64,000 nucleotides of DNA, taken from positions 48,463,847-48,527,846 of the forward strand of contig CP154954.1 of assembly GCA_039621445.1 (NCBI GenBank), read 5' to 3'. The notes below the pieces were generated by a model. The model ran no database searches and was not told where the DNA came from. It worked only from the letters and a program-made list of their open reading frames with translations. The DNA comes from Euglena gracilis (Eukaryota). The position numbers and the translations under genes were made by a program. Positions 5,637-64,000 of the stretch are shown here, piece after piece (within the stretch, counting starts at the first letter, position 1; each line of letters begins with the position of its first letter).

Positions 5637-5928
5637 ATCCTTACTTTCTTCTGCACGGAGCCGTCTGTGAACGGTGACATCCATTCAGAAGGCTCTCCTT
5701 CTCACTCTCCCTATTAAAACTAAATGAGCCCCTCATTCAAGGCTGATAACCATGATCAGGAGAACAAAATTCCAAAGTGGCAGGATTGCACCGTCAGGCA
5801 TCCAAAAAACACACACATTAACCTTGGCACAACTCGCCAACACCAACACCCACAGCAGCTTGCCAAATCTCGTGAATCATCCTTAGCCAACCACGTGTCG
5901 AGCAAAGGCGACACACCGCGGACACGGT

Positions 5929-6731
<803 letters not shown>

Positions 6732-6749
6732 CATAGCTGGCACTTCGTT

Positions 6750-8265
6750 TTATATCAAGAAAGACCCCCCCTCCACCGGCTTTGTCCTGAGTCCGGGGGA
6801 GGGGGTCACCGGCTTTGTCCGAAGGACAAGTCGGTGACCCCCCCCGCCGGACTCAGGACAAAGCCGGTGACCCCCTAATGAGGAAAATTATGTTTTTGTT
6901 GTGTGTGCCCTGTTTCCCACAGCCAAGATGATGCCGGCACAGGCCGTTGTCGTTGCTGAGGCTGGCTTGGGACCCACGCCAACCCCAACTGCATTTTTGG
7001 CGAAATTGAAGGACTTCACGGAATCCACTCCAAAGGAGGAATCTGCGGACACAGTCCTTTTTGGGGACATTTTCTCACAATCTGTGCCTCAACCTGATGG
7101 TAGCGCCAAAAACCAGAAAGGAGGTTATGTAGCTCTTGTCAATTTCCAGAAAATTTGTGAGGTGAGAGGCTACAAAACCGATGACTTGGACGAGCACATG
7201 TGCGCTTTTGCGAAGCATGTCCTCTCGGTGTATGCCATGTTCGACACGGAAGCTTCGACACGGAGGCGGTCTTTGCTGCACCGCCGGCACCGGAGGGAGC
7301 TGCCACCTCGGTCGTCATGGATAACCCTTCCTAACCCCTTCCCGGTCATGAAGACATAAACCACTGAGGAGCGCATGCAAGGAAAGCCTTGTGCTCGGTG
7401 TTTTCTGCCTTTGGGCAAGCGAGGCGCCCAATGGATTGCGATTTGTGCCATGAATTTTGGCACCTTGACTGTGCTGGCCGTCCCATGCCCCCTCCCCGCA
7501 ACAGTTGGTGTTGTCCTCGGTGTGATGGCAGGGAGATGCCTCCCATGCCCGTTCGTGTTCTGAACGCGAAGTGCAAGCACTGAGGATTACACCAACTGTC
7601 TGCCTCCATTTTTTTGTCCTGGAACAATCCATTGGCATGACGTTTGCCTGCACCAGGTTTTTTCGGTGGCAGCTCCCATCCTCCCTGTGCTGTGACGGCT
7701 TCTTGCTCTCTTGACAACCATCCAAATGCTGTTTCAGTGTCCCAAATGTGGTTGCAACCATATTCATTTCGGCTGGGTTAAAATTTGGGGTGGTCCACCG
7801 GACTCAAGACAAAGCCGGTGGACCCCCTCCACCGGCTTTGTCACCCCTGAGTACATCGGGTCACCGTCTTTGGAGGCTAGGCACAGTGGGGGGAGGGGGG
7901 GTCCAGTGGGGGGGCGAGCGGCCGCGCGGGCGGCCGCGCGGGGGGGGGGGGGGGGGGGTCCGAGGGCGGCCGCGCGGGCGGAGCGCATCCTAAAATCGGT
8001 GATTTTCGGGTCCAAAACGTGGTCATTTTTTGCCATTTTTGGACCATTTTTGACCAAAAAAGTGCTTTTTTGGCCGCGCGCAGAGCGCGCGGCCCCCAAA
8101 TTTGCCATTTTGTGTCCGAAAATGGCAATTTTTGGTCATTTTTGGCCTCAAAAAATCGCGATTTTTTTCACCAAAAATTTTTTTCTTGGCTATGCTAGGC
8201 ACAGTGGGGGAAGGGGGGGGTTCCAGGGGGGGGGGGGGGGGCGAGGCCGCGCGGCGTCCGCGCAG

Positions 8266-15453: not shown

Positions 15454-16527
15454 CCCCTATTTTGCTAATGGCCGGGCTCCTTCAGACCCCCAATTAGCCA
15501 ATTAGGGGGGGGGACAATTAGGGGGGGGGCTCGAGGACCCCGACCCCATAATTTTTGACGTGTGCAAAATTGGTCGATTTTTTTGTGCATTTTTGGATTG
15601 GTCATGACTTTTTCTTATCCGGCAAATTTTAACATTTTCGAAACGGACGTTTTTGGAGGTTTTCTGACCCCTTGCCGAAATTGGCCAAAGTTGGCCAAGG
15701 GAACGTCCATTGGCCAATTGGGCTACCCCCCCCCCCCTAATTGGCTAATGGACCTCCCTTAAGGACCCCCCAATTGGCCAATTAGGGGGGGGGGGCAATT
15801 AGGGGGGGGGTGAGGGTACATAAAAAAAAAAGGAAAAACATTTACCCTCACCCCCCCCCTATTTGGCTAATGGCCGGGCTCCTTCAGACCCCCCATTTCA
15901 GAACCCATTAGCCAATTAGGGGGGGGGGCGGCAATGCAAGTAGGGGGGGGGGGGAGGGTGGGGGGGTGAGAGAGAGAGAAGAGATAGAGGAGACAGAGAG
16001 ATAAGATAGATAGAGGACAACAGTACATATTATACATTATCGAGGCGATACTATATATCTATCTATAGAGCTAGAGATATCGAGAGATATATATATCTAT
16101 ATCTGTATGTAATAGAGATGTGAGAGAGCGAGCGAGAGCGAAGATGAGAGGGAGAGAGAGATAGCGAGAGATAGAGGGAGGGAGATGAGAGAGCTGGAGA
16201 GAGTGAGCGAAGAGAGAGAGAGAGATTGATGCAGAGGGCGATCTAGAGAGAGAGATGAGAGAGAGAGAGATAGAGAGAGAGAGATATATAGAGAGGAGAT
16301 AGAGTAGAGAGAGAGAGAGAGAGAGAGAAGAGAGATGATGAGATATAGGAAGAGAGAGAGATAGAGAGATAGAGAGAGAGAGCAGATAGATATGAGAGAG
16401 TAGAGATAGAGAGAGAGAGAGATAGATATATATATATAGAGAGTATATATATAGAGAATATAATGATATATAGCGACGATATATATATATAGATATATAG
16501 AGATTAGTATATATATATATAGATATA

Positions 16528-16568
<41 letters not shown>

Positions 16569-17394
16569 GGGGGGGAGCACACGGCTGGCATGAAGGAGGG
16601 AGCTGCGCCGGCGGCTGGCCGACGGCGTGGACGGAAGACGGCGTCCTGTGCCGTGAGCTTTTGTTGAGTTGCAAATGCCTAATTTGGTGTGCCTGTTCCA
16701 ATTTCTGGAAGGCAGATTCCTAATTTAGTGTGCCAATTCCTAATTTTGAGGTGCAAATTCCTATTTTCATGTGTATATTCCTAATTTTGAGTGGCAATTG
16801 CCTTATTTTGGGTGTAAAGTGCTGATATTTTGAGTGGTAATCCGAAGTTTGGTGTGCCAATGCCTTCTTTTGAGTGGTAAATTCCTAATTAGTGAAAAGG
16901 TTCCAAATTTTTAGCGGATTTGGTGGGCCAATTCCTAACTTTGAGTGATTAATGCCTAACTTGGGGTGCAAAGCCCTACAAGAGGGGTTGCTTTGGGCAA
17001 TTTTTAGTCACTTGAAACCGTTCCACACAAAATTTCAGCCTTTTTTCGTCCATAACAGGTAATTTTTGTCAGTTCGTGGAAAATGGACCACCAACTGAAC
17101 AATTTTTAGTCATTCGAATAATTTGTTGGCAAAATTCCTTCACAATAACTATGGAATGACCCAAGAATCGGCTGAAATGGTCAAAATTGGTCAAAAAAGT
17201 CCAAAAATTGACAAAAATTGACGAAAAATGACTTCAAATGGGCAAAAATGCAGCCTCCACGAACGATGAACATGACCTTGACAGGGGATTGACGGCGAAA
17301 TTGTTTTTGTATTGTCGAGCTATGGCTTGGGTCATTTGTGAGTGCCTGTGAGAGCCTGTGAGTCACACGGCTGGCCGACGGCGTGCTTGTCGAG

Positions 17395-17443
<49 letters not shown>

Positions 17444-18356
17444 GTGTGTGTGTGTGTGTATATATATATATAATATATATAATATACATATAAAGGGAGC
17501 ATATATATATATATACATATATATACATATATAGACATATATATATACATACATAAATATACATATACATATATACATATATATTTATGTGTGTGTGTAT
17601 TATACACACACACACATATATACATATATACACACATATATATATATATACGTATATGTATGTATATGTATATAAATTTGTATATATACACATACATATG
17701 GTAAGGCTAACTCACCGGCACCCCCCCCCCCACCCGGAGGGGTCCCAGTGGTTGGACCTACCGGGGGCTTCGGCCGCCCAGGTGAAACTACTGAACCCCC
17801 CTTGCATTTTCTTTGGGAAACCCACCCCACCGACGGAAACTTTTTTCGCCGGCGGGGGCATTTTGGGGTTATGTTTAGGAATAGGGTTAGGGTTAGGGTT
17901 AGGGATTGCGGTTAGGGTTCAGGTGAGGGTTGGGGTTAGGGGAAATCAGGCGGGGCCGAATTCCGGCTGAATTTCGGATCCAATTTTTTATGTGAATTTC
18001 GACCCGATTTCGGCACAACTTTTTCCCCAACTCGTAACCCTAACTATTCCTATATATATATATGGCAGCTACGGCAGTTACGAGTTGATATTTTGAGTTA
18101 CCACTCAAAATATCAGCACTTTACACCCAAAATTAGGCAATTGCCACTCAAAATTAGGAATATACACATGAAAATAGAAATTTGCACCTCAAAATTAGGA
18201 ATTGGCACACTAAATTAGGAATCTGCCTTCCAGAAATTGGAACAGGCACACCAAATTAGGCATTTGCAACTCAACAAAAGCTCAACGACAGGACCCGGCT
18301 TCCGTCACGCCGTCGGCCAGCCGCCGGCCAGCCGTCAGCCAGCCGTGTGCTCCTCC

Positions 18357-28890: not shown

Positions 28891-29187
28891 CAGGCTGCAT
28901 TTTAGTCGGGTGCTGATCCCGGGGGGTGCCTGCCTGGGCAGGCACTCCAAGGCACTCCAAATCCGACCCCCTCCCCCCCGGGGGGGGGGGTAGGGCACAC
29001 GGCCAAAAGTGCCCTATCACAACCCCGGTGCCGAAGGCGCTGGGGAGCCAAAAATGGCCTATTTTCAAAGGAATGTGCCTGGGCACAGGCCGAAATCCGA
29101 CCCCCCGGGGGGGGGGTAGTGCCTGCCTGGGCAGGCACTCACAGGCACTCCGGACCCCCCCCCAGGGTTGGTAAAAAAAACAGCCTG
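28891..29187. mobile_element. hAT-type MITE with perfect 8-bp TSD
   Basis: ggcaggat|CAGGCTG...CAGCCTG|ggcaggat; same family as 47792-48103. Confidence 0.9.
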
Positions 29188-40535: not shown

Positions 40536-41561
40536 GTCACGACATAATGAACATCAAATTCCAGCAGTGGTTGTTTCACAGCATTTGGGGGCTCAACTTT
40601 TAAGGCAACAGCAAGACAAATTGATATCCGAAAATGATATCCTGGTCCGATGGGGATAGAGGATCAAATACCAGCATTTTTTTTGTCACAAAACCTTATT
40701 GCAGACTGTTGCATTTTCGCATTGTTTCCGTTGCTTTTCTTCCGTTGCTTTTTGTATTTTATGTGTGCCAAGTTGCAGTGGCCAGTACTTTTTTAAAGCA
40801 AAAGGAACAAGCATGGATGTCTATTTCGACAATTAAGCACGACATGCATTTCGACAACCACGATGTCCTGTCATTGTCATATTTGTACCCAGAAGTTTCA
40901 GCCTTTGTAGGGGGGATATTCAGGCCCTGATAAACTGAACCGGAGATTCCCGAAACTCGAATATCCTGAATAACCGTTCTGGACCAATGAAATTTTTGTG
41001 GACACGTAGCAGAAGGAAGGCTGTTGGAAGGGGGGTACGGGAAAATGCAGGCACTTTTTATTGAATTTTGTCTTTTTTTTATGGCAAAGTCTTTTTTCGT
41101 TGTTTTTTTCCGAGTCTTCCAGAAGGAAAAAATGACTAGGAAGCATTTGGCATTTCGCGCCAGACTTGCTCCGTGGCAACATTTTATTTTTTATGTCATT
41201 TTTGAAACCAAAGTGGGAATTTTTGGAATCAAGGATTCCTCAAAATTTTTACAATCAGGCTATTGCTTAAGGGTTCGAAGCACCCCAGGGAGGGGGGAAG
41301 CTGGAATGCAGCTAGTCTAAATTTGGCTGGTGGAAATTCTAGTGAACCCCCCCGGGGGGGGTCCACTACCAGGGCCAGCCAGTGGAATTTTTTTCCAGTG
41401 ACCAGCACAAAGTGCTGAATTTTTTTGGACTCTCAAAACTTGCCACATAATTCCCATTTCTGGCCAACTTTGTTGTTTTTTTTGGATAAAATCAGTCTCA
41501 TTTCCACCTCGGCAAGCAGCGTCGGATGATTTTTTTTTCCAGTCTGGGGGGGACTCCGGAC

Positions 41562-41845
41562 TAGGGGTTGTTTTTTTAGTCTTGGACCCCGGAGGGGGGG
41601 TGGGGGGGTTTGGCTGAGCCCGGGTGGGGGGGTCCCCCTGGGGACCCCCGGCCCCGGAGGGGATATACTTTTCGGCGCCAAAGGCACCGAAATTTTTTTA
41701 ACAAAGGTGCTATTTTGAGCATTTTCGCGATTTTTGACCATTTTCGGGGAAAACTGAGTGGGTCCCCCGGGACCCCCCCCCCTTCCCAGGGGGTGGTGGG
41801 TGGGGGGGACCCCCCTCCCCCCGGTTTTTTTTAAAAAAAACCCTG
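41562..41845. mobile_element. hAT-type MITE with perfect 8-bp TSD
   Basis: ctccggac|TAGGGGTTG...AAACCCTG|ctccggac; same family as 50146-50418 and 57098-57340. Confidence 0.85.
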
Positions 41846-42039
41846 CTCCGGACCCCCCGGGGGGGAGGGGTCTAGCTGGTGGCTTTTGTGTCTAGCAAAA
41901 TGGCTATCCAGTGGAACCCCAGGGTTCCCAAGGAATAGTCTGGTTACAATCATTTTTTTTGAATTCCTGGTGCAACCCCAAAGTGGTTGTTTTGTTTTGT
42001 TGAGAAGCCAAAGAATCTGCTGTCCCAGTTCCCCTTCAG

Positions 42040-42150
42040 TCACTATGCTGTGTGCCGATGAGCGTGGCTGGAAGAAGCTGCTGAAGAAGCATTTGCTCTC
42101 CCCCAACACCAAAGTGACGGCCAAGAGCTTTGTGGAGCTGTTTGAGTACG
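42040..42150 (+). CDS. Exon of gene A
   Basis: ccccttcag| (V)TMLCADERGWKKLLKKHLLSPNTKVTAKSFVELFEY(G) |gtgtgt. Confidence 0.8.
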
Positions 42151-43650
42151 GTGTGTGTCCGGGAGGAAGTTATAGGCGAAGGGACAGTGGCTGGTTCATC
42201 GTTAATTATACTTTGAGGGGGTGGGGGGCCGCCAGTCGAGAAGACCGCCAGCCCCTTATTTCTTTTACTTCTTTGCTGATTTCTTTCTTTGCTTTACTGG
42301 CTTTCCTGACCGGGTTGAAGGGAACCACCCCAACTCGGTGGTGGCGTGCACCAGGTGATCCGGCATAATGTTGTCCAGCTTTGCAAGATCACCTCTGGGT
42401 CGGCATCTTTGCCGGAGGGAGTTAATACAAATTTCCAAGAAAAATGCGGAAACAATTGAAAGACCTCTCCCCACTCCAGGTGCTGAACAGTACAAACATG
42501 TGGCCCATGTGACCCATTTCACCCAATGGCAAAAATTGGTTTTTTCACACAGTTTCAGTCTTTTTGTAACCTGTGTTTTTTTGTGGTTTTTTTATGTTTT
42601 TTTTCCTGGCGATTTTTCGATTCCAGCTGGAATCGAAAAATTCCAGCAGAATCGGGAAAAAAGAATGAAAAATTTTAACCTTGAAAAATTCTGCTCTTTG
42701 AACCCACTTTTCGCTGAAATAAGTTTTTTTTCCATCCTCTGACATTTTTCGAGTGTATTTTTACCAACAAATTGCATTTTTCGAATGAGCCTGTTCCCAA
42801 ATGTTAGCCCAAAAATACATCAAAATGAAATCAACATTTTTTTGCATAATGTGTAGTTGTTTGCAAAATTTGCGGTTTTCCCCTTTGCGTTTTTGTTTGT
42901 CGCGTTTTCGATGGTCTCAGTTAAGCCACCCCCCCCCCCAAGGTTGTGCCGTTCTCTGACTTCTGAGATTGTGGAAACGTGCCTTCGCTGGCAAAAGCTT
43001 CTCGCAGTCAGGGCTCCGCCAAAAGCCTGGACAAGGTAGTGTTGCTTGGCGTCGATTCGTGGCAACCGGACCCCTCCCCCGCCCATGGCGGTGCACCAAA
43101 AATGAATGCACGACCCAGCGCATTGTGCGTTGAAAGGTGTCAGGTGCTCATTCAGATCAATCCAGAATTTGCATTTTTTTGGGGTCTCCGGGTAACGGAA
43201 TCAGCCCCCTTTTTCATTTGGTTTTCGAAGCGATTATTTGGGCAGTCAAATTGACCCTTGCTGAAAACTCGAATTCTTTTTCGGACTGCCTCCGAGAAGT
43301 GTGGCGAAAACGGAGAAGAAAATTCCCTGGCCATGTGTCAGGCCAACCCGCTCCCGGGGGGGGGAGGGTCCCAGCAAATGTGGAATCCTAACTTTTGTAA
43401 CGATGTGCATGTTGCAGTTACCATTTCTTTCAAATCGTCGACATCAAATTAGTCCGTGAATTTGTCCGTGATTTTTTCCCCTCTGTGCAAATGGGCAGAA
43501 AAAAAACGGACAGGTTCTGACAGGTTCGGAAGCAGATGATCTGCCACTGAGTGCAGTCGCCGTGTTTGATATTGAAGAATGTTTCTCTTTATAACACAAA
43601 TAACACAAAAAACACAAATTCCCGTTCAGTTATACGTTCCCAACATTCTC

Positions 43651-43903
43651 CTGCAAAAGTGGTTACCTTAGCCTCCGCGGAGCCTCCTCGGTGCCTCCGC
43701 GGAGGCTGGTTACCCTGAGCCTCCGCGGAGGCTGGTTATTTCAGAGCCTCCGCGGAGGCTGGCGATCTCGGAGCCTCCGCGGAGGCTGGTTACCTTAGCC
43801 TCTGTGGAGGCTGGTTTCCTTTGCCTCTGTGGAGGCTCCGCGGAGACTGGTTACCTTGAGCCTCCGCGGAGGCAACCAAAAAGTTAGGATTCCACTTTTG
43901 CAG
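43651..43903. mobile_element. MITE-like unit filled with an array of palindromes
   Basis: TIR CTGCAAAAGTGG...CCACTTTTGCAG; interior repeats of AGCCTCCGCGGAGGCT at ~26-bp spacing. Confidence 0.75.
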
Positions 43904-44088
43904 CAGACCCCCGGGGGTACACGTCATGGAGGGGGGAGCACGTTGGCCCTGACAGTTTTCTTGGGCCAAGCCACCCAACGAAATTCCTGGAAGGGAAGGG
44001 AGGGGGGCATTTGACCCCAACAAACCAGCTTGGAGGGGGAAGGGGAATACTGCGGGCGCGCCGACGAGTGTGCCCCCGGCCGCCCCAG

Positions 44089-44167
44089 GGGGCGTGGCGG
44101 ACGTGGCCCTCCGCCTGGACACGGGCAGCGCGCTGCAGACGCTGGTGGCGGACTTCGTCTACACCGT
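44089..44167 (+). CDS. Exon of gene A
   Basis: gccccag| (G)GVADVALRLDTGSALQTLVADFVYT(V); phase 1 matches 42150. Confidence 0.8.
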
Positions 44168-44245
44168 GCGCAGGGCATTTCGGAAGCCGGACCCCACTCG
44201 TCCCCCCCGGCCGGGGGGGGGGTCCTTGAGGAATTCCCTGACCGT
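44168..44245 (+). other. Candidate euglenid-type non-conventional intron (78 nt) corresponding to a MITE plus one TSD copy
   Basis: T|gcgCAGGG...CCCTGaccgt|G: CAG at +4..+6 and CTG at -8..-6; flanks accgtgcg/accgtgct; inner ggacccc/ggggtcc stem. Confidence 0.8.
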
Positions 44246-44280
44246 GCTGCGGCGGGTGAACGACCTGACAAAGGAGACCC
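44246..44280 (+). CDS. Exon of gene A
   Basis: LRRVNDLTKET then |gtgggg in phase 1, matching the acceptor at 45672. Confidence 0.65.
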
Positions 44281-45671
44281 GTGGGGAGGACGACACAGTC
44301 CCCACGCACCAGCTCGATGTGGACTAGCGTGGCCCCCCGCAACTCCCTCCAAACCACCCACCACCCACCCGCCATTCGTGATGCCCTCGCCAAGCGATGC
44401 ACTGGACTGTGCATGCGTGACCAGCTTCGAGTCGAGGGTTGTGTTCCTGGTGCATGTGGTGAGACAATGGCAGTGTTCTTCAAGGCCTTCGAGCTTTTGA
44501 CAAGTCGATTGGATTTATTTTTCTTTCTAATCTGAGAATGGTATTTTGACAAGACCACAAAAGCACAAATTGGACCTTTTGAGTCGAACATGAGATTTCG
44601 GTCAGTGTTTGATCCCTCTTGGTGGGTTCTCTTCAGATTTTGGGCTCCAGAATCCCAAGCAGCAGTTAAAGATGAATTTTCGAAGACATCTTCAAAATCA
44701 GCTTCAGCATCAGCTTAGGCATTTGGGTTAGGATTTGTTTGTTTGGTTTTTTTGAAAGTGAAAACAATATCAACAAATTTTTCCTTCAGGCTGTCAGAGA
44801 TGTGACAAGCTTTTTTTGCTGAACCACAGAAGTTCTGAAATCCACAAAGGAATAAACCCCCTCCCAAATTATAACCCCCCTGGGTTATTATTTTTCGCCC
44901 AAAATCCTGGCCCAAGGGGGTATTATTTAGGGGGGGGGTAATAGCACCCCAAATTTTTCGAGATTTTTTGAAGTCCCATAGGATCCAAAATAGCACCCAA
45001 AACCCCCTTTGGTGTCATTTTTTTTGTGCTTTCTCATGAAATTTAGCATTTTAGCAGGCGAGATGATCCAGAAAAATTGATTTGTATTTTATTTGCAATT
45101 TTTTTATTTGTAATTTATCGTCAGCAATTATTATTTTTACCCAAATTCTCAGGGCAAAACCTGGGCCGTCGACCGGAAAATTAGGGGGTATTGCTCGGTC
45201 GGCGAAGTCTGACTCCGACGGGGGGGGGTATTACTTGGGGGGAGGGTTTTCCGAAGTTAGTGGAGACGAAAAAAAATACGTTTACATAACCCAAAGCAAA
45301 TTCGCAAAACGGAAAATGCTGAAAATGCGGATTCTTTTTTTTCTTTGCTCCATGAACACACACACACACACACACACACCCACCCACACACCCACATACA
45401 CACACAAGCACACACGCACACACACAACACACACAAAAGAAAAGCCATTTGGGAGCAATGAAAGAAAATGGCGAATGGTTAACCTCAAGTGTGTAGATTC
45501 TCTGCCCCTGCGCCGGTCAAGGACGTCTCAAAGCGCAGCCCCCCCCCCCCCCCTGGAGGCCGTGGGAACAAGAAAGCAATTTTTTTTGGCTCATTCCAAC
45601 TTGTTTTTTCTGGCGGGGGGCAGTTGGTGCTCCGAGGGACGGGCTGCGGATGCTCTGCGCCTCGTCCCCAG

Positions 45672-47791: not shown

Positions 47792-48103
47792 CAGGCTGTT
47801 TTTAAGGTGGTGCCGACCCCACTCCGGGGGGGGGGATGCCTGCCTGGGCAGGCACTCCAAGGCACTCCCGATCCGACCCCCCCACCAGGGGGGGAGGTGG
47901 TTAGGGCACACGGCCAAAAGTGCCCTAGAACAGACCCCGGCGCCGAAGGCGCCGGGGAGCCAAAAATGGCCTATCTTCAAAGGAATGTGCCTGGGCGCAG
48001 GCCAAAATCCACCCCCTCCCCCCAGGGGGGGTAGTGCCTGCCTGGGCAGGCACCCCAAGGCACTCCGGACTCCCCCCCCCCGGGATTGGTAAAAAACAGC
48101 CTG
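47792..48103. mobile_element. hAT-type MITE with perfect 8-bp TSD
   Basis: gttgttat|CAGGCTG...CAGCCTG|gttgttat. Confidence 0.9.
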
Positions 48104-48963: not shown

Positions 48964-49355
48964 CAGGGGGTCTCTTAAGCCTGGGGGGGGTAGAGCCAGC
49001 CTTTTTCTTACCAGCAACTCACAGTCGGGCTGCGAACCCCCCCATGGTTCGCTGAAATGAAGTTCAGGCCAGCCCAGCAAAGCCAGGCTGGACCGAAGAA
49101 ATGTCCGGCGCAAAACACCAAAAACTTTGGGGAAAAGGGGGTCAAATGTGGCCCAAAATGGCCCTTTTTGGATTTTGCCTCTAAATTTTGGCCGAAAAAT
49201 GCCAACCCCGCTGGATTTGAGCTTTTGGGGGCATTGTTTTTTGGGCACTCGCCTGGTCCAGCTACCAGACCGGCCGGACCCCCCCCCCCCATCCTGCCAG
49301 CACCTTTTTCCAGCTGGCCTGCAGGACCACCCCCGGGTCCTTAAGAAAACCACTG
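48964..49355. mobile_element. hAT-type MITE
   Basis: tggttgac|CAGGGGG...ggtccttaagaaaacCACTG|ttgttgac (7/8 TSD). Confidence 0.7.
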
Positions 49356-50145: not shown

Positions 50146-50418
50146 CAGGGGTTTTTTTTAGACCCCCGGGGGGAGGGTGGGATAGGGTGGGTGGGTCCGA
50201 CCAAGCCCCCCTTTGGGGGGGGTTCCCCAGATGGGGGGTTGGGTTACTTTTTGGCGCCAAAGGTGCCGAAATTTTTTGAAAAGGTGCTATTTTTAGCATT
50301 TTCGCGATTTTTGGCCATTTTCGGGGGAAATCGGTTGGTCCCCCGGATCCCCCCCCCCCCGGAGGTGGGTGGGTGGGGGACCCCCCCCTCCCCCCCCGGT
50401 CTTTAAAAAAAGCCCCTG
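50146..50418. mobile_element. hAT-type MITE
   Basis: cgtccaac|CAGGGG...CCCCTG|cgtccgac (7/8 TSD). Confidence 0.85.
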
Positions 50419-53424: not shown

Positions 53425-54325
53425 GAACGACAGCGTCACGAGCAGCGCGACTCCCACCAGAACCCCCACCCGCAGCAACACCGAGAGCCGCACCCGCACT
53501 GCAGCCCGGCCTCCGCTGCCCGTTGTGGGGATACCCGCCAACGTGCTAGGAAGCCTTCCCCCAGAGGAAAAAGATGAATGCAAAGAATCGTCACAGGACA
53601 GGTCATTGGGTTGGAGACAGTTTTCCAGAGGACCGGCTAGCGAATGCAAAATGGACAGTTTCCTGTTGAACGACTTGCGTTTTCCCAACCATGGCCAAGT
53701 TTTCCTGGCTTGTGGCCAGAAATTGGTGAAGAAGGTGCTTTTTCACATTTCTGTGTTGGTCCAGACTGTTTGATTGCCCTCATCTGATCCCACCCCCAGG
53801 AAAACTGGTTTTTGGCCCTTTGCTCGTTAAATTGCATTAGCTGGTCTGGAAATCATTTCTTGGGGGGTTGGCACCCCCGCTGGGAATCGCTGAGATGTGT
53901 GGAGGTGGCGTGCAGGTGACAAAGCTGCTTGCGCCTGTTTAGCTGCGGGGCCTGCGGACGCCGGGGCCCGACACACACCAGGTCGTCGTCGCCCACCACG
54001 AGCGCCACGGGGACGGGCAGCCAGACGGAGAGTGGCAGCGAGAGCGGCACGAGCTCCGCCACCCGCAGCGTGTCCCTCACCTCGACCAGGCTGAATTTTA
54101 TGGCGTGGTCGACCCCACCCAGAGGATAGCAAACAATACCCCCGACTTGCTGTATGGGGGGAAGGGCAGGGAGGCTAAGAATTGCCCCTTTTTTTGGTCT
54201 TCTGGTGCCTTCAGCTGGGGCACCCTCCTCCCACGAATTCAGCCTCATGTCGACCAGCAGCAGGACACAGTCAGTGACGGGCAGTGCCACAGTCTCTCCA
54301 AGTCGCAGCGCTACGGAGACCGCAC
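53425..54325 (+). CDS. Ser/Thr-rich coding-like modules (53425-53500, 53960-54090, 54250-54325); exon boundaries unresolved
   Basis: SVTSSATPTRTPTRSNTESRTRT; GPTHTRSSSPTTSATGTGSQTESGSESGTSSATRSVSLTST; TSSRTQSVTGSATVSPSRSATET. Homologous to modules at 60-64 kb. Confidence 0.5.
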
Positions 54326-54361: not shown

Positions 54362-57014
54362 CAGGCACCTATGGCCGACCAGGGCCGACCAGGGCCGACC
54401 AGGGCCGACCAGGGCCGACTATGATTTTCAGGACCCCCGTAGGTGGGGGTTCCGACCAGGGCCGACCAGGGCCGACCAGGGCCGACCAGGGCCGACCAGG
54501 GCCGACAGGGCCGACCGAAGGGGAATGGATGAAGGAATTCGGCAGCTTTCCCTCTGAACCACCCAAGCTTTGCAAGACACTTGATCACTTTTGTTTGTCT
54601 TTGTCCTCCAGCTTTTCCAATGGCGAAGAATCATGCCTGCACGCGGACTGTGGCCCAATGGGTCGCTTGGGCGGAGGCAGATGGGATGGTCGGCATTGCA
54701 GCGGACAGCAATGATCCAGGTGCGCCAAAGGTAATGCTCTTGTTTCTTGTCTGCTTCTCTGTGTAGGGAAAGTTTATTGCACCGTTTGCGCAAGGTCGTA
54801 TGTACCCACAGCAAGCGCTTTGAAGCAGCATTGCTATGGATATTTCAAAGGAAGTGGGCCAGACAGGCAATTTGTAGAGAGTGAACACTCCAAGAAGGTA
54901 AAAAAACGGAAGGATCGTGAAGAAGCAATGCCTGCTCCGGTTTCTCAAGTCGCTGTGAATTCGGTTCCACAAAACATCATCATCCAGGTGCTATTTTGTG
55001 CAAAAAATAGAAATTGGATATTTTTCCCTCAAGGTTCAAAGTGCTTTGGAAGCAAAACCGCTCACAGATGCTATCGAGACCCCCAAGAAAAAGGCCAAAG
55101 GGACTCTGGACCATTTTGTTTCTAAAGGAAACAAGGAGGATCAATTCAAGAAAGATTTGGTTGCTGCCGCAAATATTCCTCTTGAAAAAGTAAAAACAAA
55201 AGACAACGGTGAAAAAACCTTACTGAGAAAGTTCTTTGAGAAATATGTTCGACTGGATGGCGAAGAAGTTCACCTTCCTGATCCTATCAACCTGCGAGGG
55301 AACCACGTACCCCATGTAATGGCCGATGGTATAACGTTCATTCTTGTGTGATGTCCTTGTTTGTATGTATCCACAGGCGTGCATAAGCTCAGGGACATTA
55401 TCATGAAAGGGTCCTGGTTTGTGGTGATTGAAGCCGACGAAACAGATGATCCACGACCAGATAACCACTATGTTGTTTCTGTCGCCATGACTTTGCTGTC
55501 AAAAGGCGGTGAAGCAGTTGCACCCAAAAAGTTTCATATCAAGTTATTCTACCCAACGAGCGTGGACCAGAAAACTTTGAGCTCCATCATTGACCAGGTG
55601 TTAAGACTCCTTGATTTTCTCCTAATTTACTTTTGTAGGCACTTCGTGAGCTTCACGCGAGAGCATTGCCGGGCTTTATGACCTCATGAAGTCGTCCGCC
55701 AAGACCATCCAAATTCAGTTATGTTTTGTTGTTCAAGCTTTGAAGCCTTTGTACACAGCCATCAAAACATTGCAAAAAGACAGTGGCGGAATTCATGACA
55801 TCTTGGGAGAATTTGCAAGGTTCATCACAATATTTGCCTTGCGGATTCTCTTGTATCGTGCTTTGTACAGGCTAAAGGCAAATTTCCAGGAAATGCAAGA
55901 ACGAGGACAGTGGCCGCCAGAGGTCGAACAACTTCTGGAAAGGCACAGTTCGGATTACATCAACACAATGCAAAAACTGATGAAGGCTTGTTGCAAGGTA
56001 TCTGATTTGTCTAATTTGTGATGCTGTGCTGCATTTTGGGGCGCTTTGGCCCAATCCAAGCCAAAGCCGTTTCCCCCTCGCTCATTATGTTTGCATTGCA
56101 GGCGATCGTTGACAAGATGGACAACATCTTGGTGAAAACCGTGAACGCATTTGCAGACAAGCAAGATGTCGCCCACGAAGGTGATGTGTGAGCGCGTTCC
56201 GCTGGTTAATGCCACAGAGTGGGAACGTTATATCACTCTGCCTTCCCAACAACCTCCACCATCTTCCACAGCTGGTCGCATCAACTGGTGGATGTCACAA
56301 ATTTACCATTCCTTCGTTGGTTTGGAATGAAATGTGGGGTGGTTGTGCATCTCTTGCCAAAGCGGGGTCAGCCATTTTTTTTTGGAATGTGTGGCAAAAT
56401 CACCGCTGGTGATTTAGGGGGCCATTGCGGTTTCAACATTTGGGTTGTGAGCAATGGTTTGGTTCCGCATCGCTGATTTTCCCTCGCTTGCACCCGTTGC
56501 CATGGCCTATCTGCAGGCTCCACGTTCATCTGCTCAAATAGAGCGATATTTCTCACTGCTCGGTCACACAAAAGGCTGGTATGAATGAGGATGCAAATGA
56601 TTGAAATTTTCGATTACGTCAAGAATTGTTTTTCCATTCCAGCTTTTTTTCCATTCAAACATCGGATCGCTTGAATATGTCTGATACGACGCTCACCTCC
56701 TTAGCCTTCATTTATATGAACAAGAGCTTGTTTGACATCTCTGCGTGAAGAGCCGCACTTTCACCTTTGCATTTTTGTTTTGTGCTCTGATGGCTCAGCT
56801 TATGGGGCATTTCCTTTTGATCTTGGCGAGACAAGTCAGAAAATCATTGCATCTCTTCACATTTTTTCTGTGACGGATACCCCCACCTATGGCCGACTAT
56901 TGGCCGACCAGGGCCGACCAGGGCCGACCAGGGCCGACCAGGGCCGACCAGGGCCGACCAGGGCCGACCAGGGCCGACCAGAGCGCCAAAATGGGAAGTG
57001 ACCATAGGTGCCTG
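54362..57014 (+). mobile_element. hAT DNA transposon with (CCGACCAGGG)n subterminal arrays
   Basis: gtggtgct|CAGGCACCTATGG...CCATAGGTGCCTG|gtggtgct: perfect 13-bp TIR and 8-bp TSD; encodes a transposase. Confidence 0.95.
54620..56748 (+). pseudogene. Intron-containing CGGBP-like hAT transposase, probably internally deleted
   Basis: Exons 54620-54719, 54767-54987, 55034-55328 and 55377-55597 splice in phase via GT-AG. Motifs: KVYCTVC...ALKQHC (Zn finger), ANIPLEK (CGGBP-like), ADETDD (first catalytic D), APRSSAQIERYFS (56517-) and RLNMSDTTLTSLAFIYMN (hAT C-terminal dimerisation region). Frame breaks near 55655. Confidence 0.88.
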
Positions 57015-57616: not shown

Positions 57617-57828
57617 CAGGGCGCTGTTAAACAAATTTTGACCCCCCACTTTTGGGGGCTTTTCTGATCTTTGATTTTTTTGCCACCTGGTTCGACCCAG
57701 GTTGGCTTTAGTTCCAGCCCTGGGAAGGGGGGGGGTGTCAGCCAGCAGCCTTTTTCCAGCCACCCCAAGTTTTCCAGCCTCTGAGCTGGACCCCCTGCCC
57801 CCCGGGGGGGTCCTTAAGCAACGCCCTG
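57617..57828. mobile_element. hAT-type MITE related to the 78-nt candidate intron
   Basis: gttgaggt|CAGGGCGCTG...ggtccttaagCAACGCCCTG|gtcgaggt. Confidence 0.85.
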
Positions 57829-59209
57829 GTCGAGGTGGTGTTCTTCAACCCTGCTTGTTATGGTAGTGGCAACACGGGGCAGCCAGCCGGGGTCCGAGGG
57901 GGACGGGCAGCGGCACCCGCAGCGCAACGCCCACCAGAACTCCCACCCGCAGCAGCACCGAGAGCCGCACCCGCACCGCAGCCCGGCCTCCGCCGGCCCT
58001 GGGGACACCCGGCCCCCCCCAAGGGATGCATGGGAAGCCCTGAGGGGTCCGCCCCCCCCCAACACAGAGGGGGAGGTGATCGGATCCTCCGTCTTTCCTG
58101 AAAGCAGCAAAGTGCCCGGGATATTTTCCGTTCTGTGGCCTTGACCGTCCACAGAACCGAGAATTTTCCCGGTCAAAGCAGGGCAGTCCATAAGGGACGG
58201 GAAGTTTTTTCCCCCTTGAGGACTGCCCTTAAGCCCATGGGACGGCCAACAGCCGATCCGGGGATCAACGGGGTCGGAAAATCAATCTGTCGAATAACGC
58301 ATTTTTTGACGTTTTGAGTGGATGGGCGATGGTCAAGGATGCCAGAAATCACTTTTTCCCCCAAAGTCGACCCATTTTTTGCCAAAAGATGGCATTTTCT
58401 TGTCCATTTTTCCTATGATTTTTCATTGAATGTGCTGGGACGGGAAGTTTTTTTCACGTTAATGACCGCACCGGGTCACAGGGCCTGATACGTTGGCCAA
58501 AATTTTTTAATATACCTGATTTTCCTCTGAAAATAAACCCAAAAATGATCATTTTTCGAATTATTTGTCATTTTTTTTCATCTGGAAAACACCAAAACTT
58601 CCTAAAATGCGGAATATGCTGGAATGAAAGGCATTTCATTGCTTTTTTGGTGTGCAGTGCCAAAAAATTTCTCCATTTTTGGAAACTGCCAAGGGGGGTC
58701 TGGACACCCCTTCCTCCCTGGGGAGGCGGCTGTCCAGGGGTGGTTGGGACCCCCCTTCCATCTTCCTCAATACCAATGGGTATCCCTGTCCCCCCAAATA
58801 AGATATTTTTGCTCCTTTGCTGGTGTGTCTCATTCTGTTTTGGTTTCTCATTCGTTTTTTCGGAGGGGGCTATAAAATTGGCCCACCATTAATGATTTTT
58901 TCCATTTCTCCAGTTCCCAAGCAAACAATATTTTTGTGGTGCTTCACACGTGATTGTCTATTTTCAAATTTTGTTTCTAAAATCCAAGAGCAGTCAATAG
59001 TTATTGTCAGTTTGGGCTTGAGAGATGAGAGTCTACTGTTTGAAAAAATGTTTTGAAAAAAATCACCACCCCTTGCATTTCCTACTATCGGGTATCGGGG
59101 GAGAGTTTTAAATATGGGGCAGTCTGGATCTTCGGTGTGTTGGCAATTCGTTTTCAAAACTTATGTTTTGGAGAGGGGTTTGATCAGTGGGATCCCTGAC
59201 CACCAGGCG

Positions 59210-59326: not shown

Positions 59327-60539
59327 GCAGCCCGGCCTCCACCGGCCATACGGATCTCTGACCCCACCGTTGGGGGTCGCTGGAGTGGGTGGGCATCGGT
59401 GGAGCCGGATGGAGAGGGTCCCGTCGAGATCGTGGGCGTGTCCGCTTTTAGGCCGGGATGGGGGACTTATGTGCTCAACCCGGGGGCTGGGACAATACAT
59501 TTTTTTAACCATCCCCTGAGGGGAGGGGGTCATTTCCACTCTTCCAAAAACCAGTCAGTGACTTTTATTTGGAAAAATAGTCAGTAGCTACACCCCAAGG
59601 GGGAGATCAGCCACTCAGGGATGCAAAGGAGAACAGACTACAAATGTGAAGATAAAAGGCTATATTCCTGGTACCTTCGGCACTGGAAAATATAAGTGGC
59701 CATTTGCCTTCCGTGGCATTTTAAGAGATTTTTTAAAGGCTTTTTAGGGCATTTTAATGCTTTTTAAGACGTTATTCTGCTGCGTGGTCCTGCATCGAAC
59801 CAACGTTTTTCATTCTTGCATGCGGTCCAAAACCAAAAAGCCAAAAAAATATTTTTTGTTCTTTTGTTGGACTTCCAACGATGCTGGAAATCGTCTTTCT
59901 TCCAGAATTGGGCTGTTTTCCCGAGATGTTGCGATTTCATGTTTTCTGGGTCGAAGAAAATCCTGACGGTCCGATTTTTTAAGGCATTAAAACATTTCAA
60001 GGCGTTGTAAGGTATTATGGACAAATACGCACTATGAGGCATTTTGAGTTTTTAAGGCACCTTTAAAAAATGCGTGGAGGGCAGGGTCAGACCAAAGAAC
60101 AGCCAGTCTGATTAACTGACAGACAAAACAACCAGACAGCAACGCTCCTCCCAACATGCTGGTTCGCCAGATACTATTTGTAGTTCTTCCGCGAAATTTG
60201 TCTAAGCCCCAAAACACTATATTTATCCATATTTTGGTGCAGATGGCGACTGAATCTAGCCTGTGATGTGCCTCATCACACTCATCGCACACATCACACA
60301 ATGACTGGTCAGGGGCTGAATGCGACGACAGTGCCCAGCCGGTCACAGTTCTCCCGTCGGATGCCCTGCCCGGCAACGGCCCCAGTGAAGGGGTGTAGTA
60401 CATAGAATGCTGGGGGGAACCGCGAACATTGGTATGGCCCTGTAGACATCTGTTCTGCTGCTCAGACCAGAGGGAGGAGAGGTCTGAAGAGGACCCCTCT
60501 GCAGGCTGGGATGTTGGCCGCGGGGCCAGCGGACGCCAG

Positions 60540-60743
60540 GGTCCGACCCCCACAGGCTCAGCGTCGCCCACCACGAGCGCCACGGGGACGGACAGCCAGA
60601 CGGAGAGTGGCAGCGAGAGCGGCACAGCCTCCGCCACCCGCAGCGTGACCCTGGCAGCGACCAGCAGCGGGACGCCGACGGTGACGGGTAGCGCCACAGT
60701 CTCCCCGAGCCGCAGTGAGACGCGCACAGCGAGCGTCACGGAG
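60540..60743 (+). CDS. Ser/Thr-rich mucin-like exon B, copy 1
   Basis: gacgccag| GPTPTGSASPTTSATGTDSQTESGSESGTASATRSVTLAATSSGTPTVTGSATVSPSRSETRTASVTE |gccggg. Confidence 0.6.
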
Positions 60744-61467
60744 GCCGGGCGCCTGCTGGCGGAGGCGAGGGTGGGGGTGGCAAGGGGCGGGACCCGGTGA
60801 CTGTGCCTGCTGCGGGTCACCCTCAAGGCAGGCGGTGTACACCTTTGGGGGCTCCAGTGGGTTGTCGGGCCCATCTGCTTGCCTGGGCAGCACCAGATAG
60901 GCCCGAAAGGACTGTGGAACCGGACTGAAACTTCTTTCCAACTTAATCTTGGGGTGCGTGAATGACTGGTCAGGGGCTGAATGCGACGACAGTGCCCAGC
61001 CGGTCACAGTTCTCCCGTCGGATGCCCTGCCCGGCAACGGCCCCAGTGAAGGGGTGTAGTACATAGAATGCTGGGTGGAACCGCGAACATTGGTATGGCC
61101 CAGCGAACTGCGACTCACGTGCGTCGACTGTGTGCCTCAGCCTCAGAAGATCATCCCCATGCACTGTGTGGATTTGGGACCGAAAGACGCTCAGGACATG
61201 CACGCCACAAGCCAAAATCAGTCAGCAAACGGACGGGTTGGCGAGACAGGCACGAGCTACGCGGTGTTTCCACCAACGTCACCCTTCGCTCCGACAACGC
61301 CCTTCACAAAGTCCAAAGTGGCAAATGGGATCGCCGGAGTCATTGGGGTGTGTTCTTTTGGGGCCAAGGAAGGTTTCTCTGGAACATCCATATCCGATCC
61401 CATGCATCTCTGATTTTTCCCGACTTCTTTCTGTTCCTCGGGCTGGACGACACGGGCAGCCAGCCAG

Positions 61468-61554
61468 GGTCCGAGGGGGACAGGCAGCCCCACCCGCAGC
61501 GCAACGCCCACCAGAACCCCCACCCGCAGCAGCACCGAGAGCCGCACCCGCACC
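61468..61554 (+). CDS. Ser/Thr-rich exon A, copy 1
   Basis: gccag| GPRGTGSPTRSATPTRTPTRSSTESRTRT |gcagcc; boundaries inferred. Confidence 0.45.
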
Positions 61555-61795
61555 GCAGCCCGGCCTCCGCCGGCCCTGGGGGCGCCCGTCCTCCACTGCC
61601 GGAGATACCAGGGGTGGAACTCCACCGGGTTAGGGGAGGGAGGGGGGGGGCAGGTAGACAGTCGGCAAGGAGCGGCGTTGGGGCTGGGGGGCCTCCTGGG
61701 ACTGGTTAGGCGGGGATGGGGGCTTTTGTGCTGGGCACGGGGGCTGGGACCCTTCTGCTGGCTGGGAGGCTGGCCGCGGGGCCAGCGGACGCCAG

Positions 61796-61999
61796 GGTCC
61801 GACCCCCACAGGCTCAGCGTCGCCCACCACGAGCGCCACGGGGACGGACAGCCAGACGGAGAGTGGCAGCGAGAGCGGCACAGCCTCCGCCACCCGCAGC
61901 GTGACCCTGGCAGCGACCAGCAGCGGGACGCCGACGGTGACGGGTAGCGCCACAGTCTCCCCGAGCCGCAGTGAGACGCGCACAGCGAGCGTCACGGAG
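61796..61999 (+). CDS. Ser/Thr-rich exon B, copy 2
   Basis: Matches 60540-60743. Confidence 0.6.
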
Positions 62000-62721
62000 G
62001 CCGGGCGCCTGCTGGCGGAGGCGAGGGTGGGGGTGGCAAGGGGCGGGACCCGGTGACTGTGCCTGCTGCGGGTCACCCTCAAGGCAGGCGGTGTACACCT
62101 TTGGGGGCTCCAGTGGGTTGTCGGGCCCATCTGCTTGCCTGGGCAACACCAGATAGGCCCGAAAGGACTGTGGAACCGGACTGAAACTTCTTTCCAACTT
62201 AATCTTGGGGTGCGTGAATGACTGGTCAGGGGCTGAATGCGACGACAGTGCCCAGTCGGTCACAGTTCTCCCGTCGGATGCCCTGCCCGGCAACGGCCCC
62301 AGTGAAGGGGTGTAGTACATAGAATGCTGGGTGGAACCGCGAACATTGGTATGGCCCAGCGAACTGCGACTCACGTGCGTCGACTGTGTGCCTCAGCATC
62401 AGATCATCCCCCATGTACTGTGTGGATTTGGGACCGAAAGACGCTCAGGACATGCACGCCACAAGCCAAAATCAGTCAGCAAACGGACGGGTTGGCGAGA
62501 CAGGCACGAGCTACGCGGTGTTTCCACCAACGTCACCCTTCGCTCCAACAACGCCCTTCACAAAGTCCAAAGTGGCAAATGGGATCGCCGGAGTCATTGG
62601 GGTGTGTTCTTTTGGGGCCAAGGAAGGTTTCTCTGGAACATCCATATCCGATCCCATGCATCTCTGATTTTTCCCGACTTCTTTCTACCCATTTGGGTGG
62701 ACGACACGGGCAGCCAGCCAG

Positions 62722-62808
62722 GGTCCGAGGGGGACAGGCAGCCCCACCCGCAGCGCAACGCCCACCAGAACCCCCACCCGCAGCAGCACCGAGAGCCGCA
62801 CCCGCACC
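62722..62808 (+). CDS. Ser/Thr-rich exon A, copy 2
   Basis: Matches 61468-61554. Confidence 0.45.
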
Positions 62809-63052
62809 GCAGCCCGGCCTCCGCCGGCCCTGGGGGCGCCCGTCCTCCACTGCCGGAGATACCAGGGGTGGAACTCCACCGGGTTAGGGGAGGGAGGGGG
62901 GGGGGGGCAGGTAGACAGTCGGCAAGGAGCGGCGTTGGGGCTGGGGGGCCTCCTGGGACTGGTTAGGCGGGGATGGGGGCTTTTGTGCTGGGCACGGGGG
63001 CTGGGACCCTTCTGCTGGCTGGGAGGCTGGCCGCGGGGCCAGCGGACGCCAG

Positions 63053-63253
63053 GGTCCGACCCCCACAGGCTCAGCGTCGCCCACCACGAGCGCCACGGGG
63101 ACGGACAGCCAGACGGAGAGTGGCAGCGAGAGCACAGCCTCCGCCACCCGCAGCGTGACCCTGGCAGCGACCAGCAGCGGGACGCCGACGGTGACGGGTA
63201 GCGCCACAGTCTCCCCGAGCCGCAGTGAGACGCGCACAGCGAGCGTCACGGAG
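63053..63253 (+). CDS. Ser/Thr-rich exon B, copy 3
   Basis: Matches copy 2 apart from an in-frame 3-nt deletion near 63132. Confidence 0.6.
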
Positions 63254-64000
63254 GCCGGGCGCCTGCTGGCGGAGGCGAGGGTGGGGGTGGCAAGGGGCGG
63301 GACCCGGTGACTGTGCCTGCTGCGGGTCACCCTCAAGGCAGGCGGTGTACACCTTTGGGGGCTCCAGTGGGTTGTCGGGCCCATCTGCTTGCCTGGGCAA
63401 CACCAGATAGGCCCGAAAGGACTGTGGAACCGGACTGAAACTTCTTTCCAACTTAATCTTGGGGTGCGTGAATGACTGGTCAGGGGCTGAATGCGACGAC
63501 AGTGCCCAGTCGGTCACAGTTCTCCCGTCGGATGCCCTGCCCGGCAACGGCCCCAGTGAAGGGGTGTAGTACATAGAATGCTGGGTGGAACCGCGAACAT
63601 TGGTATGGCCCAGCGAACTGCGACTCACGTGCGTCGACTGTGTGCCTCAGCATCAGATCATCCCCATGTACTGTGTGGATTTGGGACCGAAAGACGCTCA
63701 GGACATGCACGCCACAAGCCAAAATCAGTCAGCAAACGGACGGGTTGGCGAGACAGGCACGAGCTACGCGGTGTTTCCACCAACGTCACCCTTCGCTCCA
63801 ACAACGCCCTTCACAAAGTCCAAAGTGGCAAATGGGATCGCCGGAGTCATTGGGGTGTGTTCTTTTGGGGCCAAGGAAGGTTTCTCTGGAACATCCATAT
63901 CCGATCCCATGCATCTCTGATTTTTCCCGACTTCTTTCTACCCATTTGGGTGGACGACACGGGCAGCCAGCCAGGGTCCGAGGGGGACAGGCAGCCCCAC

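Follow-up and report, generated by a model that had tools for sequence, protein, structure and literature searches.

Nonconventional (NC) introns form a very large class in euglenid genes. They make up 71.8% of the introns of Euglena agilis (PMC12501133) and about 16,150 of the 28,337 introns identified in Euglena gracilis (summed from Table 1 of PMC11170887), in which their length has a minimum of 30–36 nt and a mean of about 520 nt (PMC11170887). In older descriptions, NC introns carry CAG at positions +4 to +6 and CTG at positions −8 to −6 and have pyrimidine|purine junctions (PMC11282704, PMC6221363), and they were reported to be excised as circles, after the conventional introns (PMC11282704). 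The code 5'-N3-CDG-/-CH'G-N5-6|R was defined by knock-in genetics (PMC12501133). [quoted passage not shown] Here we describe a 78-nt intron in the last coding exon of a gene within a 64,000-nt stretch of E. gracilis DNA (assembly GCA_039621445.1, contig CP154954.1, positions 48,463,847 to 48,527,846 of the forward strand), which is called the window below and is numbered from its first letter. It is likely that this feature is a genuine NC intron of the euglenid type and that it arose from a small foldback DNA transposon.

Transposons with 8-bp duplications are known from the hAT superfamily, where Ac/Ds elements have ends of the type C/TAGGG (PMC3260210). Conversion of a DNA transposon and its target duplication into an intron was described for the introners of Micromonas, Aureococcus, and dinoflagellates, and for the non-canonical introns of Amoebophrya that carry terminal inverted repeats and TSDs (PMC11282704).

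Comparison with known introns and transposons

The intron at 44168–44245 is an ordinary member of the NC class. Like the NC introns described in E. gracilis and E. agilis (PMC3935182, PMC4770533, PMC11170887, PMC12501133), it has no GT/GC-AG borders and carries CAG at +4 to +6 and CTG at −8 to −6. It also shares with them the spacers of 3 nt and 5 nt, a downstream exon that begins with a purine, junctions of the pyrimidine|purine type, and base pairing of the termini, the direct repeats make the intron 'slidable', and 78 nt is within the reported length range. Nothing essential differs from the described introns; the one here is short, contains little beyond two inverted arms, and has recognizable relatives nearby. 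Its 8-nt repeat is still near-intact, as in the gapC intron that E. agilis ACOI 323 gained recently (PMC4770533).

On the DNA side, the locus resembles the non-autonomous hAT elements such as maize Ds (PMC3260210) in the 8-bp TSD, in short inverted repeats of the C/TAGGG type, and in the presence of short non-coding derivatives beside transposase-bearing elements. Subterminal short repeats, which are found in hAT elements (PMC3260210), are also present in the long element of the window described below. In contrast to maize Ds, the element here could not be paired, by its inverted repeats, with a transposase-bearing partner, and it is removed at the RNA level by a dedicated code that does not look spliceosomal. 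Ds acting as an intron is said to use cryptic spliceosomal sites (reportedly from work by Giroux in 1994). The likeness to introners and to the Amoebophrya introns is that a DNA transposon and its target duplication yield an intron whose borders are marked by the inverted repeat and the TSD. In introners, however, GT/AG is recruited from the element or from the TSD and the spliceosome is used (PMC11282704), whereas the borders here are read from CAG and CTG at fixed distances. The TSDs of Amoebophrya are 3–5 nt long (PMC11282704), compared with 8 nt here.

The features at the site are as follows.

44168–44245, plus strand: NC intron, 78 nt; register set by the N3-CAG...CTG-N5/R code, with RNA permitting 44163–44240 through 44170–44247
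44163–44170, no strand: left copy of the TSD-like 8-nt direct repeat, ACCGTGCG
44171–44240, no strand: MITE-like foldback element of 70 nt; its termini are CAGGG...CCCTG, and nothing internal is present beyond two inverted arms
44241–44248, no strand: 8-nt direct repeat, right copy, ACCGTGCT, the version retained in the mRNA
44089–44167, plus strand: initial portion of the last coding exon, ending at the junction T44167/G44168 that the code predicts; RNA depth begins at 44088/44089, in frame with the upstream exon
44246–44327, plus strand: remaining coding sequence, with the purine G44246 as its first base and the stop codon TAG at 44325–44327

Removal of the 78-nt sequence from RNA

Read and contig sets were compared with the locus over 43900–44800. 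They comprised the raw RNA runs X21 and X24, the contig set X15 (RNA by guess), and the DNA contigs X5. In X21, 18 of the 47 placed reads (8 and 10 by strand, with 16 distinct starts) contained the joint 44162>44241, a skip of 78 nt at which 7 letters fit either side. Another three reads stopped at 44241, leaving a loose end of 17 nt that agrees with the exon side upstream of the joint. The depth of X21 was 23.8 (11.5 + 12.3) in 44117–44147 and 22.9 in 44241–44271. Inside, it was 0 + 0.58 in 44179–44209 and 0 + 1 in 44210–44240, corresponding to about one unspliced read. An 800-nt contig of X15 had the same joint and no mismatch to the locus over 290 nt. One contig of the X5 DNA crossed the whole stretch with the insert and without a joint. 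No back-joints were found among the placed RNA reads. No reads of X24 were placed, so that this run was not counted as a test, and runs X16–X19 (RNA by guess), with 0.56–0.58 of the sampled words, were not counted as evidence.

This result showed that the 78 nt are removed from the mature mRNA, by which an uninterrupted reading frame is restored. The excision of 78 nt had been predicted from the sequence by the initial annotation, and it is exactly this length that the 18 X21 reads and the X15 contig skip. The annotation had also pointed out that 78 is a multiple of three without a stop codon and that the mRNA might retain the sequence. The first statement was borne out, as the insert lies in frame within the open reading frame (ORF) 43953–44327; retention was contradicted by the internal depth, which was 0 to 1 when the flanks had about 23.

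Because of the direct repeat, eight registers are equivalent with respect to the RNA, and the intron ends in these registers are AC..TG, CC..GA, CG..AC, GT..CC, TG..CG, GC..GT, CG..TG, and GC..GC. In none of the eight mRNA-compatible registers were GT/GC-AG or AT-AC borders found. Use of the GT at 44166 with a downstream AG, which the initial annotation had named as an alternative outcome, was thus not observed; the 78-nt joint was the only one seen, and no register gives AG. After the ambiguous heptamer of the joint, the RNA continues with T (44248), which makes the removal of G44170 certain. The mismatch between the two repeats at 44170 had been placed inside the intron by the annotation, and the RNA, which keeps T44248, agrees.

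The X21 reads differed from the locus at 44150, 44293, 44295, 44297, 44320, and 44333. These variants form two linked groups together with a 1-nt deletion and are absent from the X5 DNA contig. They point to strain differences or to the expression of a second, perhaps a third, allele or paralogue.

Splice register and architecture of the element

The sequence GCG-CAG (44168–44173)...CTG-ACCGT (44238–44245)|G44246 is an exact fit to the knock-in-defined code (PMC12501133), and it also agrees with the description by CAG/CTG at +4 to +6/−8 to −6 and pyrimidine|purine junctions (PMC11282704). We assigned the register 44168–44245, with T|G at both junctions, because the code N3-CAG/CTG-N5|R demands it. 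The same borders had been proposed by the initial annotation, whose coordinates and letters were correct on re-reading of the sequence; they match the published code, and the RNA alone is compatible with eight registers.

The element at 44171–44240 starts with CAGGGCATTTC and ends with GAATTCCCTG, and the 8-nt repeats abut it directly. The two copies ACCGTGCG and ACCGTGCT are identical at 7 of 8 positions, with the mismatch at 44170/44248. The 70-nt element and one copy of the repeat add up to 78 nt. Its terminal inverted repeat has 9 matches of 11 without gaps. Further inward, the arms 44189–44195/44219–44225 and 44202–44210/44211–44219 extend the foldback over the whole length, with an energy of −38.2 kcal/mol.

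The pairing of the intron ends was tested in the 10 + U7 + 10 format of PMC11170887. Positions 44168–44175 pair with 44236–44245 with a 2-nt bulge. The energy was −6.8 kcal/mol. When 2000 end pairs were drawn at random from the window, their mean was −1.85 kcal/mol, and 4.45% of them were as good; for the neighboring conventional intron the energy was −1.0 kcal/mol. This terminal pairing alone stands out, modestly.

Related elements in the window

The window was scanned for pairs of CAG...CTG that are 40–3000 nt apart and have at least 9 matches of 11 in the inverted repeat, which gave 378 candidates. Eight of these were flanked in the exact register by an 8-nt repeat with at most one mismatch, and in four of the eight the repeat was perfect. 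The 14 out-of-register controls gave 0–5 candidates each, and in 40 Markov shuffles the mean was 0.10 and the count never exceeded one element, against the eight observed. The length of the repeat was specific: eight elements were found at length 8, one at length 7, and none at lengths 9–12. The eight elements are listed below, with details of two of them and of the element at 48964–49355.

2169–2343, 28891–29187, 41256–41942, 44171–44240, 47792–48103, 50146–50418, 54362–57014, and 57617–57828: the eight elements with an inverted repeat and an 8-nt repeat
57617–57828, no strand: 212-nt relative with the TSD GTTGAGGT/GTCGAGGT, sharing the 3' end motif of the intron element
48964–49355, no strand: 392-nt relative with the TSD TGGTTGAC/TTGTTGAC (7 of 8) and the same 3' end motif; its inverted repeat is too weak for the scan
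41256–41942, no strand: 687-nt CAGG...CCTG element with the TSD TTTACAAT/GTTACAAT, upstream of the exon at 42040

The initial annotation had noted that the intron's 3' end resembles the elements at 57617–57828 and 48964–49355. The resemblance is real, as GGTCCTTRAG-N7-CTG is common to all three. This pattern occurs three times in the window, each time as the 3' end of one of these elements, and none of 100 shuffles contained it even once. In the alignment, the 5' ends of the three elements align too. Five additional contigs of 31–32 nt in the X5 DNA matched 44213–44241 with one mismatch each, which suggests that the element's 3' end is repeated at other places in the genome. At the sites of three elements, neither strand has an open frame; the architecture of an inverted repeat with an 8-nt repeat is therefore not limited to coding exons. 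When the reading frames of the flanks of the other eight elements were inspected, no clear frame rich in G + C at the third codon position (GC3) was restored by excision, and intron status is not claimed for them.

The element at 41256–41942 is presumed to lie in the preceding intron of the same gene, where no RNA read was placed. The motif TTGCTTAAGG at its 5' end is also present in the end of the element at 57617.

The elements at 2169–2343, 28891–29187, 41256–41942, 47792–48103, and 50146–50418 are 175–687 nt long with CAGG...CCTG ends and 8-nt duplications, three of which are perfect. Those at 28891 and 47792 have CAGGCTG...TTTT ends in common.

The 20-nt 3' end of the intron element had two exact matches in metagenome sequences (L001, 2120–2139, and L002, 706–725). 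At both loci, a G-run and an inverted repeat next to the match are lacking, and both were rejected as chance matches. Judged by eye, they lie in bacterial-looking coding sequence.

A probable hAT-type element at 54362–57014

54362–57014, plus strand: putative hAT-type transposon, 2653 nt, with a 13-nt perfect inverted repeat CAGGCACCTATGG, a perfect 8-nt TSD GTGGTGCT, and a frameshifted, internally deleted transposase gene

The longest of the eight elements carries a string of frameshifted ORFs. Apart from its two ends, no site with its inverted repeat CAGGCACCTATGG was found. Subterminally, GGCCGACCAG is present in 16 direct copies, eight near the left end and eight near the right.

In a search of 1.84 billion representatives with ORF 55352–55678, 30 relatives were detected at E ≤ 1e-3. 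The relatives of the transposase are mostly without Pfam annotation and have the motif DETDDPRP in common. They include P0020 (476 aa), to which P0032 is related with 46% identity. P0032 passed the Pfam cut-off for Dimer_Tnp_hAT (PF05699) with 28.6 bits against 21.4 (E = 1.2e-6). Homologues were aligned to the plus strand of the element by tblastn in collinear order: P0028 on 54620–55600 (4e-30), P0005 on 55085–55600 (7e-52), residues 163–334 of P0032 on 55665–56300 (2e-15), and its hAT-domain residues 328–395 on 56454–56736. The sole Pfam match of the window ORF 56451–56585 was Dimer_Tnp_hAT (E = 0.0071), a match that falls short of the cut-off. Weaker leads were an Atlas search with P0020, in which nine of the ten best named clusters were hAT families with scores of 0.88–0.89, and a DUF659 match of P0021 (E = 0.076). 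The Atlas search with the 109-aa ORF gave only weak RNase_T-like leads. The structure predicted for P0020 was of low confidence (mean predicted local distance difference test score, 58.5; predicted template modeling score, 0.36), and Foldseek found no match to this model at E ≤ 0.001. Sequence searches of the PDB with P0020 and with profile A3 found nothing. An empty site of the element was sought in the 1255-nt tandem-repeat paralogues, but the comparison with them stopped short of the insertion point.

With fair confidence, the sequence at 54362–57014 can be taken for a decayed hAT element. From their ends and duplications we infer that the short CAGG elements with 8-bp duplications, including the intron element, are hAT-like. 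The CAGG-terminated elements with 8-bp TSDs are probably non-autonomous derivatives of the hAT superfamily.

Alternative explanations

Several points weigh against the interpretation as an NC intron derived from a hAT-like MITE. The RNA cannot separate the eight registers, and the cut positions at 3 nt and 5 nt are borrowed from published work on other introns. That X15 is RNA is a guess. The X21 reads have variant letters at 44150, 44293, 44295, 44297, and 44320; more than one allele or paralogue may be expressed, so that an insert-free copy could contribute reads. RNA folding, which the initial annotation had proposed as a check, supported the interpretation only for the terminal pairing given above, whereas the energy of the whole 86-nt hairpin is ordinary for its composition of G- and C-runs (z = −0.90; 38 of 200 shuffles did as well). 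The total stability of the hairpin was given no weight because it is not above that of composition-matched shuffles. A second full copy of the 70-nt element was not found in the window, and the one DNA run compared (X5) carries the insert. As for the hAT assignment, Pfam searches with nine ORFs of the element at 54362–57014 and with 11 homologues found nothing relevant. Hermes transposase was the first PDB fold match, a weak one to be taken as a lead only (E = 7.3e-3; template modeling score, 0.16). The element at 54362–57014 shares with the intron element only CAGG and the TSD length, and no longer inverted repeat.

Without any splicing, RNA lacking the 78 nt could come from an insert-free allele or paralogue if the insert-bearing copy were silent or read through. 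The variants at the five positions indicate that more than one copy is expressed, and contigs reveal the presence of variants, not their absence. This explanation is nevertheless quite unlikely, as the borders fit a genetically defined splicing code (PMC12501133) and the X15 contig, which has no mismatch to the locus across 290 nt of exon, is nonetheless without the insert. The X5 DNA contig is unbranched across the site, with the insert and no joint, and the approximately one internal RNA read indicates that the insert exists in the RNA-sampled strain, yet about 20-fold under-represented. Template switching by reverse transcriptase is known to produce artefacts that fake introns. The geometry here is the classic one, with a stable foldback (−38.2 kcal/mol) over a G/C-rich hairpin between perfect 7-nt repeats. 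However, the skip was near-complete (18 joint reads against about one internal) and was seen in two libraries, and randomly primed fragments would still start within a retained hairpin. The intron class was, moreover, validated in knock-ins by phenotype and not by cDNA alone (PMC12501133), so that we regard such an artefact as very improbable. Lowest in probability, close to nil, is that the 78 nt are read through as a 26-residue coding insert or are removed as a conventional spliceosomal intron with cryptic sites. The insert is in frame without a stop, and a GT is present at 44166, but this explanation was refuted by the RNA depth of 0 to 1 inside against about 23 beside and by the single joint of exactly 78 nt, for which no register ends in AG or AC as needed.

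The intron may also be an NC intron that did not come from a transposon, the 8-nt repeat being a scar of double-strand-break repair or of another mode of intron gain, and the inverted termini being present because splicing needs them. Double-strand-break repair was proposed by Milanowski et al. in 2016 for the newly gained gapC intron with 8-nt direct repeats (PMC4770533), and the lack of a second full 70-nt copy in the window fits such an origin. We consider it unlikely, though less so than the explanations above. An inverted repeat with an 8-nt repeat was found eight times in 64 kb against 0.10 expected, three of these elements are where neither strand has an open frame, and a terminal 20-nt pattern is common to three elements. 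One element with the same hallmarks bears a probable hAT-type transposase remnant, and five more contexts for the intron element's 3' end were found in the X5 DNA. The initial annotation had called the intron MITE-derived. The inverted repeat, the 8-nt duplication, the relatives in the window, and the five extra DNA contigs all favor this origin, which we likewise infer.

Proposed history and mechanism

If the intron derives from a MITE, a 70-nt element with CAGGG...CCCTG ends would have entered the last coding exon, generating an 8-bp duplication of the target (ACCGTGCT), and one copy of the repeat would later have mutated at 44170. In the pre-mRNA, as in published work on other introns, CAG at 44171–44173 would pair with CTG at 44238–44240 and juxtapose the two junctions. 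The NC machinery would then cut T44167|G44168, 3 nt before CAG, and T44245|G44246, 5 nt after CTG. Removal would probably take place after that of the neighboring conventional intron, and the intron would probably be freed as a circle. Such a cut would erase the insertion precisely and restore the pre-insertion sequence ACCGTGCT, because 3 + 5 = 8 is the length of the duplication.

A machinery working at fixed distances would hide only those elements whose duplication equals the sum of the two spacers, and the sum here is the hAT value. We tentatively suggest, as a possibility at somewhat less than even chances, that the 3 + 5 = 8 register was fixed because NC introns descend from hAT-type elements with 8-bp duplications and CAGG...CCTG ends. 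This idea would offer a reason for the otherwise arbitrary rule of 3-nt and 5-nt spacers. If it is true, the window displays a series from a transposase-bearing hAT element (54362–57014) through non-autonomous derivatives of 175–687 nt to a 70-nt foldback acting as an intron, and NC introns would be a device of the host, or of the element, for masking insertions of hAT MITEs in exons. No paper linking the NC introns of Euglena to hAT or to an 8-bp rule was found in a search that covered the literature outside the supplements of the 2025 PNAS paper (PMC12501133), which possibly contain distributions of repeat lengths. In the available portions of the intron papers of 2014 and 2016, the 2024 review, and the 2025 PNAS paper, the superfamily is not named (the term hAT has no occurrence in those of the 2014 paper).

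A single intron does not settle the origin of NC introns. The intron at 44168–44245 is a clean exemplar, with removal verified by RNA, a perfect fit to the code, a near-intact 8-nt duplication, and relatives that are partly in places without an ORF, and a probable hAT-type transposase remnant with the same end hallmarks is located 10 kb from it. It turns the question of origin into a concrete genome-wide test.

Host gene and other sequences in the window

42040–42150, plus strand: upstream coding exon; the 3' end at 42150 is supported by RNA, and the 5' end at 42040 is predicted from a cag acceptor-like site
42151–44088, plus strand: conventional GT-AG intron, 1938 nt, with GTGTGTG at the 5' end and a C-rich tract and CAG at the 3' end; it holds a 27-nt tandem repeat
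44328–44455, plus strand: 3' untranslated region; the transcript ends near 44455, as the X15 contig stops at 44455 and the X21 depth is 0 after 44457

The upstream exon was connected to the last exon by a loose end of 30 nt before 44088, which was present in 19 RNA reads and in the X15 contig and has a unique match at 42120–42149. Conventional introns of E. gracilis have a 5' GTGTG motif and a 3' C-rich tract with CAG (PMC11170887), and the signals of the intron at 42151–44088 agree with this consensus. The unspliced ORF 43953–44327 has a GC3 of 0.79, with the 78 nt in frame and free of stops. A Pfam search with the last exon gave only a chance-level holin match (E = 0.074), and of the 236 candidates from a search for longer proteins, none was homologous to the host protein at E ≤ 0.1. 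The host gene was therefore left unnamed, as there is neither a Pfam family nor a detectable homologue. Rfam gave no matches over the whole window.

Inside the conventional intron, a 27-nt tandem repeat occupies 43693–43837 with 5.6 copies and 82% matches, and its unit includes the palindrome GCCTCCGCGGAGGC. A tandem array with a unit of about 1255 nt is present at 60300–64000, in at least three copies of 98.4–99.8% identity, and runs off the end of the window. The unit has GC3-rich ORFs (0.75–0.83) on both strands that gave no Pfam match, and diverged pieces of it are found at 53431–53516, 53942–54308, and 57872–58017. Long CA/TG-type and TA-rich microsatellite tracts lie at 5876–6834, 16074–17711, and 45260–45500. 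Runs of G and of C (GGGGGGTCC/GGACCCCCC-like) are scattered over the whole window.

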